The notes under the pieces were generated by a model, which was not told where the DNA came from, did no database searches, and saw only the letters and a list, made by a program, of their open reading frames with translations. A stretch of 64,000 bases of DNA from an uncultured Lentisphaeraceae bacterium (GTDB taxonomy: Bacteria > Verrucomicrobiota > Kiritimatiellia > RFP12 > UBA1067): the NCBI GenBank assembly GCA_964386865.1, contig CAYLUN010000004.1:28123-92122 (forward strand). Reading direction: 5' to 3'. This document shows positions 4,272 to 55,796 of this stretch, piece by piece. The translations under genes were made by a program, and so were the position numbers. The stretch's first letter is position 1. The number at the start of each line of letters is the position of its first letter.

Positions 4272-4306
4272 AGGTAGGAGTTGGGAGTTAGGAATTAGGA
4301 GTTAGG
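4272..4306. repeat. tandem heptanucleotide repeat, about 5 units (AGTTAGG family)
   Basis: AGGTAGG AGTTGGG AGTTAGG AATTAGG AGTTAGG in the 79-nt proB-proA spacer. Confidence 0.9.
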
Positions 4307-4346
4307 GGAAGGAGCGCAGGAACACAAACGCCAAACGCCTCTCTGT

Positions 4347-5153
4347 TCACAGCGCGCTGCTGAGGATCAGGGTGCCGGTGTCGTGTCCGGCCATCACATT
4401 GAGCAGGATGCGGCTGTCGCGGCCGCAGGCGATGACCACGCCGCAGCCGGTCTTCACGGCGATCTGCGCGGCACGCAGCTTGGAGTCCATGCCGCCCTTC
4501 GACAGGCCGCCGCTCTGGGCGGGGTTGACCAGCGAGAAGGCGTCGCTCAGGTTCTCGATGCAGGGAACGCGCTTGCCGGCGGCGTCGAGCACGCCGTCGA
4601 CGGTGCTGAGGATAATGAGCAGGTCTGCGCGCACGAGCTTCACGACCAGGGCGGCGAGGTAATCGTTGTCGCCGAGGGAGAGGTCGGCTTTGATCTCCTC
4701 GTCCGCCACCACGTCGTTTTCGTTGATGATCGGGATCACGCTGTGCCGAATCATATGCTCCATGGTTCGCTTGGCGTTGGCGAAGCGGATGCGGTGCTGA
4801 AAGTCGGCGTGCGTGAGCAGAACCTGCCCGATGGTGATCTTCTCGGCGTTGAACAGCTCCTCGTAATGCGCCATCAGGCGGGCCTGCCCGACGGCCGCGC
4901 ACATCTGCAGGTCGGGCACGGTCTTGGGGCGCTCCTTCATGCCCAGCGCCTCGACACCGGCGCCGATGGCGCCGGAGGAGACCATCAGAACCTCGTAGCC
5001 TTTTCGCTGGAGCTCGGCCACTTGGGCGACGAGGCTCTTGAGGGGGCGCATATCGGGCCGCCCGGTCTTCTGGGCGATCACGCGGGTGCCGATCTTGACG
5101 ACGACGCGGCGGGCTTCGGGGAGAAACTCACGGTAGCGGTGTTCTACGTTCAT
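4347..5153 (-). CDS. proB: glutamate 5-kinase (short form without PUA domain)
   Basis: 268-aa amino-acid-kinase fold: VVKIGTRVI…, MVSSGAIGAG, INENDVV. Confidence 0.93.
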   Translation of the reverse strand: MNVEHRYREFLPEARRVVVKIGTRVIAQKTGRPDMRPLKSLVAQVAELQRKGYEVLMVSSGAIGAGVEALGMKERPKTVPDLQMCAAVGQARLMAHYEELFNAEKITIGQVLLTHADFQHRIRFANAKRTMEHMIRHSVIPIINENDVVADEEIKADLSLGDNDYLAALVVKLVRADLLIILSTVDGVLDAAGKRVPCIENLSDAFSLVNPAQSGGLSKGGMDSKLRAAQIAVKTGCGVVIACGRDSRILLNVMAGHDTGTLILSSAL

Positions 5154-5177
5154 GGGCGATGGGTGCTGGTTGGTAGT

Positions 5178-5247
5178 TTACAGGTTACAGGTTACAGGTT
5201 GCAGGTTACAGGTTACAGGTTACACGTTACACGTTACACGTTACACG
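5178..5247. repeat. biphasic tandem heptanucleotide array: 6 x TTACAGG (one unit is TTGCAGG), then 4 x TTACACG
   Basis: Ten contiguous in-phase 7-nt units read directly. They lie between the tsf terminator and the proB start. Confidence 0.95.
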
Positions 5248-5311
5248 CTGCTGGTCAGGCGGAACATTTTCAGTTTACTGGATGTGCGGGGGGAAAGCAA
5301 GCGGTGCGGGA

Positions 5312-5342
5312 CATACAAAAGGCCGGGGCGAGCGCCCCGGCC
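5312..5342 (-). terminator. intrinsic terminator of tsf
   Basis: On the minus strand, GGCCGGGGC-loop-GCCCCGGCC is followed by TTTTGTATGT, about 30 nt after the tsf stop. Confidence 0.75.
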
Positions 5343-5370
5343 TCCTGTGGTGTCGTCTCGCGCGTCGCGT

Positions 5371-53102: not shown

Positions 53103-53155
53103 CATTAGCAGGCTTTGGCCCAGTGATTGCGATTCAAAGTGAAGGGGGTCATGCG

Positions 53156-53332
53156 ATGAGTAACCCAAAAGAAACAAGCACGGCGAACGGGCAGAAGAAG
53201 GGTTTCTGGGCGCTACTGAAGGAGTCGATCGCCATGAGCAACGACGGCTGCGGCCCCGGTTGCGGCTGCCACGCGGCAGACGATACGAAGGTGAAAGGCG
53301 GCCCGGTTGCGGCGGGCGGAAAGAAGAAGTAG
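53156..53332 (+). CDS. small (58 aa) Cys-motif protein (GCGPGCGCH), possible metal-binding protein
   Basis: MSNPKETSTANGQKKGFWALLKESIAMSNDGCGPGCGCHAADDTKVKGG…. ATG 53156 lies 7 nt after GAAGGGGG. It is short, so the coding call is supported mainly by the good RBS and by the shared motif in the 55814 protein. Confidence 0.55.
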   Translation: MSNPKETSTANGQKKGFWALLKESIAMSNDGCGPGCGCHAADDTKVKGGPVAAGGKKK

Positions 53333-53413
53333 TCCGGCTGATTCCTGCCGCAACAGGGGTGTGCTGTCCGATGGGGTCTCCTTCCTTCGGACACGTCCGG
53401 ACGGAGGATTCTG

Positions 53414-55351
53414 ATGTCAGATTTTGATGGCGTACGATCCGAAAAGGGCCGGGAGCTGCTGGTGCTCTCCCTTGCCCCTGCGCTGATCCTTGCCCTGATC
53501 CTTGTGAGTTGGGCGCTCGCCCACTGGCGCATCGGCCCCGTCTACCTGAATGCGTCCGTGGCAGTAGTGGCCGTCTTTCTGGGAGGAGCCCCGCGGTTTC
53601 GTGCGGGGTTCAAGGACGTCTTTCGTGGCCGGATCACGGTCAACGTCTTTGTGACTGTTGCGCTTGCCGCGACTATTGTAGTAGGCGAGTTCCGTCCGGC
53701 GGCGATCATCATCCTCATCATGTCGGTGGTAGGGGCGTTGGAAAGCTACACGCTGGAGAAGACGCGCCGGAGCATCAGCGACCTGCTCGCGTTCGCGCCG
53801 CAGACCGCGACGGTGCGCCGCAACGGCGAGGAGGTGACCCTGCCTGTGGCGGAGCTTGTAATTGGCGACCGGGTCATCGTCCGTCCCGGCGAGCGGATAT
53901 CGGTGGACGGTACGGTGGTCGCCGGGGCCAGCAGCGTGAACCAGGCGCCCATCACCGGCGAGTCCATGCCGGTGGAAAAGACGGCGGGGAGCGGCGTGTT
54001 CAGCGGGACGCTCAACGAGTCGGGCCGACTGGAGATCAAGGCGGAAAAGGTGGGCGAGGGCACCACGCTGGCACGGATCGTCCATCTGGTGCAGGATGCC
54101 CAGAACACGCGCGCGCCCATCCAGAATCTGGCGGATAGGTTTACGACGTGGTTCTTGCCTACGGTGATCGTGTTGGCCGTTCTGGCCTACTTCGTTACCG
54201 GTGATTTGAAGGCGGCGGTCTCGGTTTTGCTGGTGGCCTGCCCGTGCGCCTTTGCCATCGCTACGCCGACGGCGGTGACGGCCGGCGTGTCGAATCTGGC
54301 GCGGCGGGCGATTTTGGTCAAAGGCGGGGCCTTTCTGGAACTGGGGCATAAGATCGACCATCTGCTGGTCGACAAGACGGGGACGTTCACTTTCGGCAGG
54401 CCGAAGGTGATTGAAATTGTGTGCTTCACTAGCCAATCCCCTGACGACGTTCTGCGTCTGGCCTGCATGGCCGAGAAGTACTCCGAGCATCCGTTGGCTC
54501 GTGCCGTTCTGGCGGCGGGCCGTGAGAAGGGACTGCCTCTGGAAGAGCCCGAGCAATTCACCAGTTTCGCGGGCAAGGGCGTGGAGGCGACATGGAAGGG
54601 CGACCGGATACAGGTGGGCAAGCCATCTTTGTTTCAGGATCATAAGTCTGCCCGCATTGCTGAAATCGAGCGGGCTCTCGCGCAGCAGTCGGAGCAGGGC
54701 CATACGGCAGTTCTGGTCGCCCGGAATGACGTGTTGATCGGGCTTCTGGCGATTGCGGACGAGATCCGGCCAGATATGCCTAGCGCCATCCGCGCCCTCA
54801 AGGAGATGGGCGTCAAGCGCATTACGATGTTGACGGGCGACAGTCCGCAAGTGGCTGCGGCTGTGGCCCGCGCGATCGGCGTCGATGATTTTCAGGCTGA
54901 GTTGCTGCCCGAGCAGAAGCAGGCGTTTGTCAAGAAGTGCCAGGCGGATGGCCAGACGGTCGGGATGGTCGGCGACGGCGTCAATGACGCGCCCGCACTC
55001 GCCCTGGCTGATGTGGGCATCGCCATGGGCGCGGCCGGCACGGATGTGGCGATCGAAACGGCGGACGTAACGCTGATGAACGATGACCTTTCGGGCGTCG
55101 CGGAGTTCATGTGGATGTCGGCGAAGGTGCTTCGGCGCATCAAGCTGAACATCTTTTTTTCCATGATTTACAACATCATCGGCCTCACCCTGAGCGTTGT
55201 CGGGTTGATGACACCCATTATCGCGGTGATCTTTCAAGAGGCGGGTTGTGTGACGGTTGTCGTCAGCTCGACGCTGCTGCTCTGGGCAAAAGGGCGACCG
55301 GCGGCTTTGGCGCGCGGTTATTGCGAATCAATAGAACAGGTTAAAGGCTAA
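53414..55351 (+). CDS. P1B-type heavy-metal-translocating ATPase lacking an N-terminal metal-binding domain
   Basis: TGES, CPC in TM (…LLVACPCAFAIATP…), DKTGTFT, GDGVNDAP. The protein starts directly with TM helices, and the TM5/TM6 signature residues are atypical (NIFFSMIYN; FQEAGCVTVVVSS). Confidence 0.9.
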   Translation: MSDFDGVRSEKGRELLVLSLAPALILALILVSWALAHWRIGPVYLNASVAVVAVFLGGAPRFRAGFKDVFRGRITVNVFVTVALAATIVVGEFRPAAIIILIMSVVGALESYTLEKTRRSISDLLAFAPQTATVRRNGEEVTLPVAELVIGDRVIVRPGERISVDGTVVAGASSVNQAPITGESMPVEKTAGSGVFSGTLNESGRLEIKAEKVGEGTTLARIVHLVQDAQNTRAPIQNLADRFTTWFLPTVIVLAVLAYFVTGDLKAAVSVLLVACPCAFAIATPTAVTAGVSNLARRAILVKGGAFLELGHKIDHLLVDKTGTFTFGRPKVIEIVCFTSQSPDDVLRLACMAEKYSEHPLARAVLAAGREKGLPLEEPEQFTSFAGKGVEATWKGDRIQVGKPSLFQDHKSARIAEIERALAQQSEQGHTAVLVARNDVLIGLLAIADEIRPDMPSAIRALKEMGVKRITMLTGDSPQVAAAVARAIGVDDFQAELLPEQKQAFVKKCQADGQTVGMVGDGVNDAPALALADVGIAMGAAGTDVAIETADVTLMNDDLSGVAEFMWMSAKVLRRIKLNIFFSMIYNIIGLTLSVVGLMTPIIAVIFQEAGCVTVVVSSTLLLWAKGRPAALARGYCESIEQVKG

Positions 55352-55386
55352 ATGAACGAGTCTTCGTTTGAAGAGGAGCGTAGAAG

Positions 55387-55776
55387 ATGAACAGTGAAGC
55401 GATGCGGTCGACATTGAGGATCACCAAGGCGCTGTCGGACATTCAGCGATTGCGCATTTTGATGGCGTTGCGGACGGGCGAGCTGTGCGTGTGCCAGATC
55501 ATCGCGGTGCTGGGGCTGGCGCCTTCGACGGTGTCCAAGCACCTGTCGATCCTGAGCGCGGCGGACCTTGTGGACTCGCGCAAGGACGGTCGCTGGGCGT
55601 ATTTCCGGCTGCCGCAGGGCGAGGCGCTCAAGGCGGTGAAGCCGGTGCTGAAATGGCTCGACGGGGCGTTGGAGTGCGATGATTCAATCGCGAAGGACGC
55701 GAAGAAACTTGAGGCGGCGTTGGCGTGTCCGCCCGAAAGCCTGAGCGAGCGCCAAAGGAAAAGGTGCGATGGGTGA
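55387..55776 (+). CDS. arsR: ArsR/SmtB-family regulator (paralog of 50924-51316)
   Basis: …ALSDIQRLRILMALRTGELCVCQIIAVLGLAPSTVSKHLSILSAADLV…. By hand alignment, 78 of 109 positions are identical to the hgc-linked ArsR. Confidence 0.88.
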   Translation: MNSEAMRSTLRITKALSDIQRLRILMALRTGELCVCQIIAVLGLAPSTVSKHLSILSAADLVDSRKDGRWAYFRLPQGEALKAVKPVLKWLDGALECDDSIAKDAKKLEAALACPPESLSERQRKRCDG

Positions 55777-55796
55777 GACGGAGGTCAGAGGTCAAA
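55772..55796. repeat. short GGTCAGA-family repeat (2-3 units)
   Basis: GGTGAGA..GGTCAGA GGTCAAA. It spans the arsR stop and the next gene's RBS region. Confidence 0.6.

Follow-up and report, generated by a model that had tools for sequence, protein, structure and literature searches.

Heptanucleotide repeats are the most abundant long simple-sequence repeats (LSSRs) in many bacteria, and polymerase slippage has been proposed to explain them (Mrazek et al. 2007, as cited in PMC4679880 and PMC4692102). To judge from the accessible parts of the LSSR surveys, which cover units of 5-11 nucleotides (nt), such repeats consist of head-to-tail 7-nt units, are longer than expected by chance, are concentrated between genes (7 is not a multiple of 3), include several units per genome and have slippage as their proposed origin (Mrazek, Guo and Shah 2007; Huang and Mrazek 2014, PMC4060949). 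Here we describe tandem 7-nt arrays that recur between genes in a 64-kb stretch of DNA (contig CAYLUN010000004.1, positions 28,123 to 92,122; the whole stretch is hereafter called the window) from an uncultured bacterium of the Kiritimatiellia. The arrays are heptanucleotide microsatellites, that is, LSSRs, and they are a trait of this Kiritimatiellia clade: they have tandem 7-nt units, exceed the lengths found in shuffled sequences and are depleted in coding sequence, all of which they share with the repeats surveyed. The repeat class is already known, and the arrays, being real and clade-wide, are not categorically new. In comparison with the accessible LSSR accounts, the sense-dependent placement at stops and starts, the bias towards co-directional spacers and the recurrence at orthologous spacers are added here.

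The short tandemly repeated repetitive (STRR) sequences of heterocystous cyanobacteria have the units CCCCAGT, TTGGTCA and CAACAGT. They form tandem heptanucleotide arrays in intergenic or intercistronic DNA (e.g., pecE-pecF) with several families per genome, as is the case here. However, no dimer of these three units is found in the window on either strand with up to 2 mismatches, and the host is a member of the Kiritimatiellia and not a cyanobacterium. The STRR sequences and the GGGGAYT repeats of Nostoc also differ in phylum, units and host G+C, and the G-rich cyanobacterial families form G-quadruplexes (PMC4692102), which are not predicted here. The preliminary description of this DNA took STRR as its precedent; the arrays are indeed STRR-like, but the emphasis was overstated because several other close analogs have been described. 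Its further remark that no equivalent had been described for such a high-G+C anaerobe stands, since the host is represented by metagenome-assembled genomes (MAGs) of the Kiritimatiellia and we found in the literature neither a description of such heptamer repeats in this group nor a report of LSSRs for the Planctomycetes-Verrucomicrobia-Chlamydiae (PVC) group.

Another close analog is the TAACTGA repeat of marine Beggiatoaceae, cyanobacteria and some Bacteroidetes (MacGregor 2015, PMC4679880), whose arrays of 2 to >10 copies lie directly upstream of start codons in forward orientation, where a canonical Shine-Dalgarno (SD) sequence is rare, next to housekeeping and other genes with no functional theme, much like the arrays here. 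The TAACTGA unit contains UAAC, as do CCUAACU and CNUGUAAC in the window. The same placement is seen for the C-rich arrays at 4272, 16102, 27419, 31304 and 32148 (0-10 nt before ATG, with no GGAG, GAGG or AGGA between) but not for the G-rich arrays. In the TAACTGA genomes one heptamer dominates and related ones are rare, whereas at least six families occur within 64 kb here, including a G-rich SD-like class at stop codons, and the TAACTGA unit itself is absent (0 matches in the window to TAACTGATAACTGA with up to 2 mismatches). Heptamers have also been described just upstream of start codons in Xanthomonas (GGGAATC) and Nostoc (GGGGAYT; PMC4692102); further analogs with such a position are the four- or five-fold heptamer elements of Geobacter metallireducens (PMC2700814), and the heptamers near the start codons of Nostoc recF and recO, which affect reporter output (bioRxiv 10.1101/2022.06.06.494920). 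None of the STRR, TAACTGA, Xanthomonas, Nostoc, Geobacter or Vibrio ctx units occurs in the window.

Two further systems are comparable in part. Repetitive extragenic palindromes (REP) and bacterial interspersed mosaic elements (BIME) of enterobacteria are intercistronic palindromes with units that are imperfect palindromes of about 35 nt. Like the arrays here, they are short dispersed elements in transcribed co-directional spacers, and inverted array pairs in our data form stable predicted hairpins; however, REP/BIME units are not tandem 7-mers, and most arrays here are unpaired and unstructured. HutP reads UAG plus 4 nt, TRAP reads (G/U)AG plus 2-3 nt, and about 7 nt are spanned by a cold-shock domain. 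By analogy only, the TRAP and HutP operators, with a conserved core of 3-5 nt at a fixed short period, free spacer positions and an overlap with the start, resemble the arrays of AAC plus 4 nt (nine units) before thiC and of GAAAC plus 2 nt (seven units) at lipB. Those operators serve one regulon with a cognate protein, whereas the genes downstream of the arrays here are unrelated, the arrays occur in both orientations and no cognate protein is known. What differs from the described cases is the number of families per genome, the G-rich SD-like class at stop codons, the pairing of a G-rich 5' array with a C-rich 3' array, and the recurrence at orthologous spacers.

Heptanucleotide arrays in the window

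The window has a G+C content of ~65% and a GC skew that is positive along its entire length, and our gene map, based on codon usage, contains 67 genes (90% coding). The closest relatives of its ThiC protein are found in Kiritimatiellia/'Lentisphaeraceae' MAGs with 92% identity at most, which makes the host an uncultured member of that PVC class. We also observed an rnfA/E-B-C-D-G cluster at 28287-32766 (-), which together with ThiC and radical-SAM genes fits the anaerobic lifestyle assumed in the preliminary description. The window was searched with Tandem Repeats Finder (TRF) and with our own lag-k detector, for which the threshold was at least 70% self-match over four units. TRF reports period-7 arrays at six sites with 4.6-10.3 copies each. 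These six solid arrays, a mini-array that had not been listed before, and the weaker entries are as follows, with units in the listed sense (loci of relatives carry L numbers).

4272-4306 (-), array in the proB-proA spacer: sense CCTAACT CCTAATT CCTAACT CCCAACT CCTACCT; 4 nt before the proA ATG (4267), no SD; TRF 4275-4306, 4.6 copies; identical in L082 and L083
5178-5247 (-), array in the proB 5' leader: sense (CGTGTAA)x4, (CCTGTAA)x2, CCTGCAA, (CCTGTAA)x3; 24 nt before the ATG (5153), no SD; TRF 5178-5245, 9.7 copies, 95% matches
9780-9851 (+), array from an ABC-transporter permease gene to a radical-SAM gene: GGTCRGA/GGGCGGA x10; 1 nt past the stop, putative GTG start at 9864; TRF 9780-9851, 10.3 copies, 90% matches
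16102-16164 (+), array in the thiD-thiC spacer: AACNNNN x9; overlaps the thiD stop, 2 nt before the thiC ATG (16167), no SD; TRF 16102-16147, period 7 with a 21-nt superperiod
19033-19081 (+), array at the lipB end: GAAACNN x7; overlaps the last codons and the TAG stop and reaches the start (GTG 19073 or ATG 19097) of a gene of no assigned function; TRF 19033-19079, period 7 with a 21-nt superperiod
27345-27399 (+), array from a response-regulator gene to nrdR: GGTCAGA family x7; 4-6 nt past the response-regulator stop; TRF 27345-27399, period 7, with a 21-nt superperiod over 27359-27399; identical in six independent assemblies
27419-27442 (+), mini-array before nrdR: CCTAACG ATCAACG ATTAACT TCT, with AAC every 7 nt; abuts the ATG (27443), no SD
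31304-31331 (-), weak array in the rnfB-rnfC spacer: sense CTAACAGC CTAAACGA CTAACAGC; 2-3 units with a period of 7-8 nt; 3 nt before the rnfC ATG; TRF score 31; identical in L084 and L085
32148-32176 (-), weak array in the rnfA/E-rnfB spacer: sense includes ...CTAACAGCCTACAGCCTA...; about 10 nt before the rnfB ATG; TRF score 30
45994-46017 (+), weak array from arsR to a permease gene: TTAGGCTG AAGGCTG TTAGGCTGA
46044-46067 (+), inverted partner of the 45994 array, forming a hairpin with it: TCAAGCCTGGCTGGCTAAACAGCC
55772-55796 (+), remnant from an arsR-family gene to a gene of no assigned function: GGTCAGA family, 2-3 units; overlaps the stop and is followed by an SD (GGGAGG) and an ATG at 55814; no TRF hit at score 30

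The lag-7 detector recovers the same six arrays as TRF, and 0.0 arrays in 10 dinucleotide-preserving shuffles of the window. It finds no arrays in the window at lags 8-11, and its matches at lags 6 and 12 fall in coding sequence. Five of the six solid arrays are intergenic, and the sixth, at 19033, overlaps only the last codons and the stop of lipB. The self-match of the intergenic DNA peaks at lags 7, 14 and 21 (0.311, 0.293 and 0.283, respectively, against ~0.27 at neighboring lags), whereas the coding DNA shows period 3 only; once the ten arrays of the preliminary description are removed, the lag-7 value falls to 0.284. The four weak entries (31304, 32148, 45994 and 55772) have 2-3 units each and TRF scores of 30-32 or none, and such scores are common among chance matches within genes. 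They are 2-3-unit remnants of the same families as the six solid arrays. AGGCTGT occurs 15 times in the window against 6.3 expected, a number reached in 0 of 100 shuffles, and GGTCAGA dimers are found at four spacer sites (two of them inside the 9780 array) and once in a gene. Further degenerate remnants of 2-3 units were seen at 57642-57659 (+; GGTAACG CTGAACG CCGA) and at 4325-4339 (GGCGTTT x2 in mRNA sense), so that the listed arrays are the visible part of a larger, decaying population.

The preliminary description had read several families of mostly 7-nt units, and these readings are confirmed, with six arrays solid by both TRF and shuffling. It had counted at least eleven array-bearing spacers; its list holds ten, six statistically solid and four weak. 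The arrays were said to fill intercistronic spacers, and most do, except that the 5178 array lies in the 5' leader of proB and not within an operon; likewise, the statement that arrays begin a few nt past the upstream stop holds for about half of them, and those at 4272 and 5178 begin ~40 and ~124 nt after it.

The assignment of the 5178 array to the 5' untranslated region of proB follows from two elements upstream of it, both conserved in relatives while their flanks diverge.

5315-5342 (-), terminator-like hairpin with a T-run after tsf
5272-5300 (-), promoter-like boxes TTGCTT-17-TAAACT

A simple consensus scan for promoters and terminators flagged neither of the two, and the assignment rests on their conservation. 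At 9780, GGAGG recurs about 7 times at the unit junctions. In a scan of the window against Rfam 15, the sole match at the gathering threshold is a thiamine pyrophosphate (TPP) riboswitch (RF00059, 63.5 bits) at 15068-15171 (+), upstream of thiD, which places the thiD-thiC array within a riboswitch-controlled operon; no array matches any family at that threshold. The genes next to the arrays are housekeeping genes with no common theme (proBA, thiC, rnf, nrdR and arsR-linked). In a predicted fold of 4253-4349 (-), the 9 nt that directly follow the proB stop (GAGAGGCGU) are base-paired to AUGUCUCUC at the start of proA, leaving the array in a loop; the fold has an overall z-score of 0, so that it may be due to chance, and such a layout would be apt for translational coupling.

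The arrays at 4272, 16102, 27347, 31304 and 32148 recur without a single base difference in independent assemblies (JGI 3300045131 and five SRA runs), whose contigs are 99.8-100% identical to the window overall. The concern, raised at the outset, that the arrays might be assembly artifacts is rejected on the strength of these five. Exact-protein look-ups for the permease (8855-9778) and lipB gave no matches, which leaves the arrays at 9780 and 19033 with no independent copy. A short-read contig of L083 breaks within the 5178 array, and the contigs of L092 and L099 also end inside long heptamer arrays, which indicates that the repeats fragment MAGs at operon junctions; copy numbers from short-read assemblies may be under-estimated. 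The 21-nt (3 x 7) higher-order period at 16102-16147, 19033-19079 and 27359-27399 points to recent duplications three units long, and 21 nt is the shortest length that preserves the 7-nt register and the reading frame together.

Distribution, placement and predicted folding

Genome assemblies contributed 80 thiC loci and metagenomes 78 proB loci to the comparison, and the clade census covers the 118 of them that had a length of at least 4 kb and usable gene calls (1.39 Mb, 89.5% coding). These relatives hold 51 lag-7 arrays, of which 36 are intergenic and thus lie in 10.5% of the sequence, the rest being mostly at gene borders or in miscalled open reading frames (ORFs). The enrichment outside genes is about 30-fold; lag-8 arrays are the only other class enriched there (9 of 15 outside genes), and lags 4-6 follow the coding content. 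Arrays are therefore not as frequent within genes as outside them, and the earlier statement that coding regions are free of them except at the end of lipB is borne out in the window and in the 1.39 Mb of relatives. The density of lag-7 arrays is 25-76 per Mb in the relatives and 94 per Mb in the window, and zero were found in 72 kb of distant proB relatives (at most 68% identity). It is also evident that the arrays prefer spacers between co-directional genes, as the preliminary description had it, with a per-kb density about 4-10-fold higher than in divergent or convergent spacers. The counts are given below, with expectations calculated from the observed counts under a uniform density.

Co-directional spacers: 27 arrays in 63.7 kb; 19.1 expected; 0.42 per kb
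Divergent spacers: 1 array in 22.5 kb; 6.7 expected; 0.04 per kb
Convergent spacers: 1 array in 10.4 kb; 3.1 expected; 0.10 per kb

Orthologous spacers carry arrays at recurring positions, while the units drift in sequence and copy number. In at least 12 relatives, the thiD-thiC spacer closes with degenerate heptamers of the form NNNNAAC immediately ahead of the ATG; L003 has (CGCTGAA)5(CCTAACT)6 in this spacer, and L063 and L068 instead have a stretch of ~100 nt made up of G-rich AGTCAGG/AGTTAGG units, with AAGGAG after it. In the proB leader, at least 12 relatives (85-90% identity) have 2-5 degenerate (C/G)NGTAAC units, of which the window carries a ten-copy expansion. AAC-phased heptamers are thus kept at the thiC and proB leaders in relatives of 85-92% protein identity, and the other positions of the unit differ. 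The distribution is patchy, with an array at only a quarter to a third of the related thiC loci. Arrays with the GAAAC core (GAAACNN) occur at other loci in L008, L016, L025 and L041, making five genomes including the window.

Several relatives show more elaborate arrangements. Octamer arrays AAGTTCTA/AGTTCTAA lie at 4674, 5838, 8841 and 12238 of L025 (complete chromosome OW818680.1), with AAGTTCTA present five times within this genome, and also in a second genome (L028, 17118); the 160-nt spacer of L025 at 12222-12381 is filled by three different arrays in series. At an 11.7-kb locus of a relative with 49% G+C (L030), a composite module is present twice (6901-7227 and 11329-11527), in which (TYCAGTG)n, reaching 26 copies, is joined by a conserved linker of 35 nt to (ACTGTAR)n, with TGTCCAACGTCCAACATGGAGGGGC after it. 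This repeated module suggests that some array pairs spread as units.

Read in the sense of the mRNA, the arrays take two forms. The first is G-poor and rich in C, A and U with an AAC core, and includes CCUAACU (proA), CNUGUAA (proB, whose units read ..GUAAC.. across the unit junctions), AACNNNN (thiC), CUAACAGC (rnfB and rnfC) and the nrdR mini-array CCUAACG AUCAACG AUUAACU. In the window, arrays of this form end 0-24 nt before an ATG with no GGAG, GAGG or AGGA between, and the orthologous thiC and proB leaders of relatives likewise have no SD between the C-rich array and the ATG. The second form is G-rich and repeats an SD core: GGUCGGAGG, GGUCGGA-GG and GGGCGGA-GG in the window, and GGAGCUU, AGGAGUY and GUCGGAG in relatives; these arrays contain GGAG(G) or precede it. 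The two forms differ in placement. Arrays that are G-rich in sense start at the upstream stop in 13 of 13 spacers (within the edge tolerance of the detector), whereas 2 of the 9 C-rich ones touch the stop and 6 of the 9 abut the start. Where a spacer holds both forms, the G-rich one is 5' (27345/27419 and 45994/46044 in the window; L092, L099, L102, L093 and L067). The cores of both forms are also evident in a test of triplet recurrence in 355 non-redundant, sense-oriented co-directional spacers, in which the excess of recurrence at lag 7 is greatest for AAC (64, compared with 13.8 at other lags), AGG (45 vs 11), GAG (44 vs 12.8) and TAA (33 vs 7), and lower for their complements (GTT 36, CCT 25). 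Within the thiC array, 1 deviation from the column consensus falls in AAC (positions 1-3) and 11 in positions 4-7; in the lipB array, there are 1 in GAAAC and 6 in NN.

RNA with arrays is predicted to be weakly structured. Windows of 60 nt upstream of starts that overlap an array have a mean minimum free energy (MFE) of -7.4 kcal/mol, compared with -15.6 kcal/mol upstream of other genes (P = 4e-4, Mann-Whitney test) and -20.1 kcal/mol for coding windows (P = 3e-6, Mann-Whitney test). The proB leader has a weaker predicted fold than all of 200 shuffles (z = +2.8), and the predicted MFE of the thiC leader is -2.7 kcal/mol over 82 nt. Inverted array pairs behave differently. The pair at 45994-46067 in the window gives a predicted hairpin with z = -2.36 (5 of 200 shuffles fold as well), and those in relatives give z = -6.4 (L092), -3.5 (L099) and -3.0 (L067). 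In L092 and L099, the 5' arm starts from AAGGAGG right after the proB stop, and the 3' arm (CUAACUCC...) runs to the contig end, short of proA. With a strict filter, which left only n = 3 inverted pairs, all pairs are G-rich in the 5' arm, compared with 48:33 for ordinary hairpins, and cases seen manually trend alike, although the comparison is underpowered. Just before a gene start, at 20664-20745 (+), one spacer of the window contains two copies of a palindromic, G+C-rich element of 25 nt (AGGGGCGGGCCGCAGCGCCTGCCCG), which looks REP-like and is unrelated to the heptamers.

Origin and possible roles of the arrays

We tentatively favor a composite reading, at a probability of about 0.45, in which heptanucleotide microsatellites born by slippage are retained as translation-linked, structure-poor spacer or leader RNA. 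The exclusion from genes, the bias towards co-directional spacers, the sense-dependent placement, the weak predicted folding and the hairpins of inverted pairs speak for it. In-register replication slippage or unequal exchange would create and remodel the arrays; the 21-nt superperiods and the copy-number differences between relatives, which are found between species-level relatives at the same spacer, support an origin of this type. A 7-nt unit would shift the reading frame, leaving arrays to survive only outside genes. A unit that is strand-skewed and not self-complementary could not fold on itself in tandem, which would give open intercistronic RNA in a genome of 65% G+C, and the arrays may be kept because they leave the RNA between cistrons open. 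SD-independent initiation may use the C-rich type as a standby site or loading pad. The G-rich type would offer reiterated SD-like sites that could hold or recapture a terminating ribosome and so promote re-initiation (coupling) over a long spacer. An inverted pair of a G-rich array and its reverse complement may form a long hairpin that is melted by the ribosome terminating at the upstream stop, or that stabilizes the mRNA.

Several observations weigh against this composite reading, and some of them concern the DNA strand rather than the RNA. Every family in the window is G-rich on the + strand, which is the G-rich and presumably leading strand, regardless of gene direction, so that genes on the - strand receive C-rich arrays and those on the + strand mostly G-rich ones. 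Across loci, the sign of the array skew equals that of the GC skew of the locus in 28 of 39 cases (P about 0.009, the cases being non-independent and confounded with gene direction and orthology). That G-richness tracks the DNA strand points to a strand-biased mutational process rather than to selection on RNA. The same DNA family moreover occurs in both orientations relative to transcription: GAAAC lies in sense orientation in the window and in L008 and in antisense orientation in L041 and L025, and CCTAACT is in sense in the window and L003, while its complement AGTTAGG is in sense in L063, L068 and L016; any model that requires a strand-specific RNA sequence to be read is weakened by this. 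Weak folding is automatic for a skewed tandem repeat, hence it may be a by-product. No array changes in copy number among 2-7 near-identical, near-clonal assemblies, the sole difference being one substitution in the 5178 array of L082 (a CGTGTAA unit to CCTGTAA), so that slippage has not been directly observed. In addition, the gene calls of the relatives come from a home-made caller and contain errors (e.g., at L008), many counts are non-independent because part of the arrays are orthologous, and a function of the arrays is suggested by their position and predicted folding alone.

These points bear on the possibility that the arrays are functionless by-products of a clade-specific, strand-biased peculiarity of slippage or repair, piling up where selection is weakest. 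We consider this unlikely, though several observations favor it: the prevalence of heptanucleotide repeats in other bacteria and their attribution to slippage in the accounts cited above, the many unrelated units in both orientations, the fluidity of unit sequence and copy number between relatives, the patchy occurrence at related thiC loci, and the G-richness of the arrays on the G-rich, presumably leading strand (28 of 39 cases, and every family of the window), which parallels a general asymmetry of leaders. In the window, an SD-like motif precedes 18 of the 31 genes on the + strand and 4 of the 16 on the - strand, and at loci of relatives with positive skew it precedes 54% of + strand genes (G-rich leaders) and 39% of - strand genes (C-rich leaders); this asymmetry is possibly confounded by expression level or operon position. 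About half of the organism's genes have no SD. What a neutral by-product would not readily explain is the 4-10-fold higher density in co-directional spacers, the placement that depends on sense (at the stop for the G-rich arrays of all 13 spacers, at the start for 6 of the 9 C-rich ones), the periodic motif kept at orthologous leaders despite diverged non-coding flanks, the conserved cores with variable spacer positions, and the recurrence of families within one genome.

Conserved cores and recurring families would also be expected if the arrays were tracks of operators bound by a dedicated single-strand-binding oligomer (ribosomal protein S1, a protein with a cold-shock domain or a ring like that of TRAP or HutP) that reads AAC, GAAAC or GTAAC once per 7 nt and controls translation or RNA fate. 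This explanation is doubtful, yet several observations agree with it: within the thiC and lipB arrays the cores are conserved and the spacer positions free, GAAACNN arrays stand at different loci in five genomes, AAC-phased heptamers persist at orthologous thiC and proB leaders, AAC is the strongest lag-7 triplet in sense-oriented spacers, families recur within one genome (in the window GGTCAGA and AGGCTGT three times each, in L025 AAGTTCTA five times), and S1, Csp or CsrA has been proposed for the AAC-containing TAACTGA repeats (MacGregor 2015, PMC4679880). However, at least six unit families in 64 kb would require many factors or a very loose specificity, the occurrence of one family in both orientations is hard to square with a reader that binds RNA, and the functional diversity of the downstream genes (proBA, thiC, rnf, nrdR, arsR-linked) argues against a single regulon. 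No candidate binding protein has been identified, and no search was aimed at one; the tests of positions within arrays were post hoc and involve few independent mutations because of the 21-nt duplications. In a broader version, which we regard as distinctly improbable, the AAC-phased arrays and their GTT complements would be tracks read unit by unit by a conserved single-strand-binding oligomer (cold-shock-domain protein, S1 or ring protein), as a system of SD-independent initiation and cistron coupling to which the TAACTGA arrays of Beggiatoaceae, cyanobacteria and Bacteroidetes, with their UAAC, would also belong.

Two other explanations are very improbable and were rejected. Contingency loci, in which a hypermutable copy number switches neighboring genes (phase variation), might be suspected from the two long, near-perfect arrays at 5178 (95% matches) and 9780 (90%) and from the L083 contig that breaks inside the former; however, the neighbors are housekeeping genes (proBA, thiC, rnf, nrdR) and not surface or host-interaction genes, most arrays are interrupted or degenerate, none lies between -35 and -10 boxes or inside an ORF (the 5178 array is downstream of the -10 box), and there is no copy-number polymorphism among the 2-7 near-identical assemblies, a comparison of limited power since they are nearly clonal. 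We give no more credence to a G-quadruplex or other non-B structure of the G-rich strand, in DNA or RNA, that would act on transcription or replication. The G-rich heptamers GGGAATC of Xanthomonas and GGGGAYT of Nostoc form G-quadruplexes (PMC4692102), and part of the 9780 array is GGGCGGA x3, but no array contains the canonical motif (G3+N1-7)x4, of which the four instances in the window lie elsewhere, and most units have GG runs only or are G-poor on both strands (AACNNNN, CNTGTAA). An element like CRISPR or REP was rejected because the 7-mers are contiguous, with no unique spacers and no palindromic unit. Rho utilization (rut) sites are expected to have a spacing longer than 7 nt. As loading sites for Rho they were set aside for the C-rich arrays, given that about half of the arrays are C-poor in sense.

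Implications for the clade

Whichever of these explanations holds, short-read assemblies are interrupted at operon junctions by the arrays, a matter of concern for MAG quality. Neutral arrays would be the mark of a clade-specific process of strand-biased slippage. If AAC-phased arrays are instead tracks read by an oligomer shared across phyla, a translational control element would be hidden in DNA filed as microsatellite. If, as in the composite reading, the arrays tune re-initiation or SD-independent loading, they would provide a simple and evolvable setting of protein ratios within the operons of a G+C-rich genome, and this would account for the initiation of about half of the organism's genes without an SD. 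The clade offers an unusually dense and comparable set of arrays (extrapolated from ~94 per Mb in the window), with orthologous spacers in many MAG relatives, and the two positional rules, that is, G-rich SD-like arrays at stops and C-rich AAC-core arrays before SD-less starts, make a long-standing question testable.

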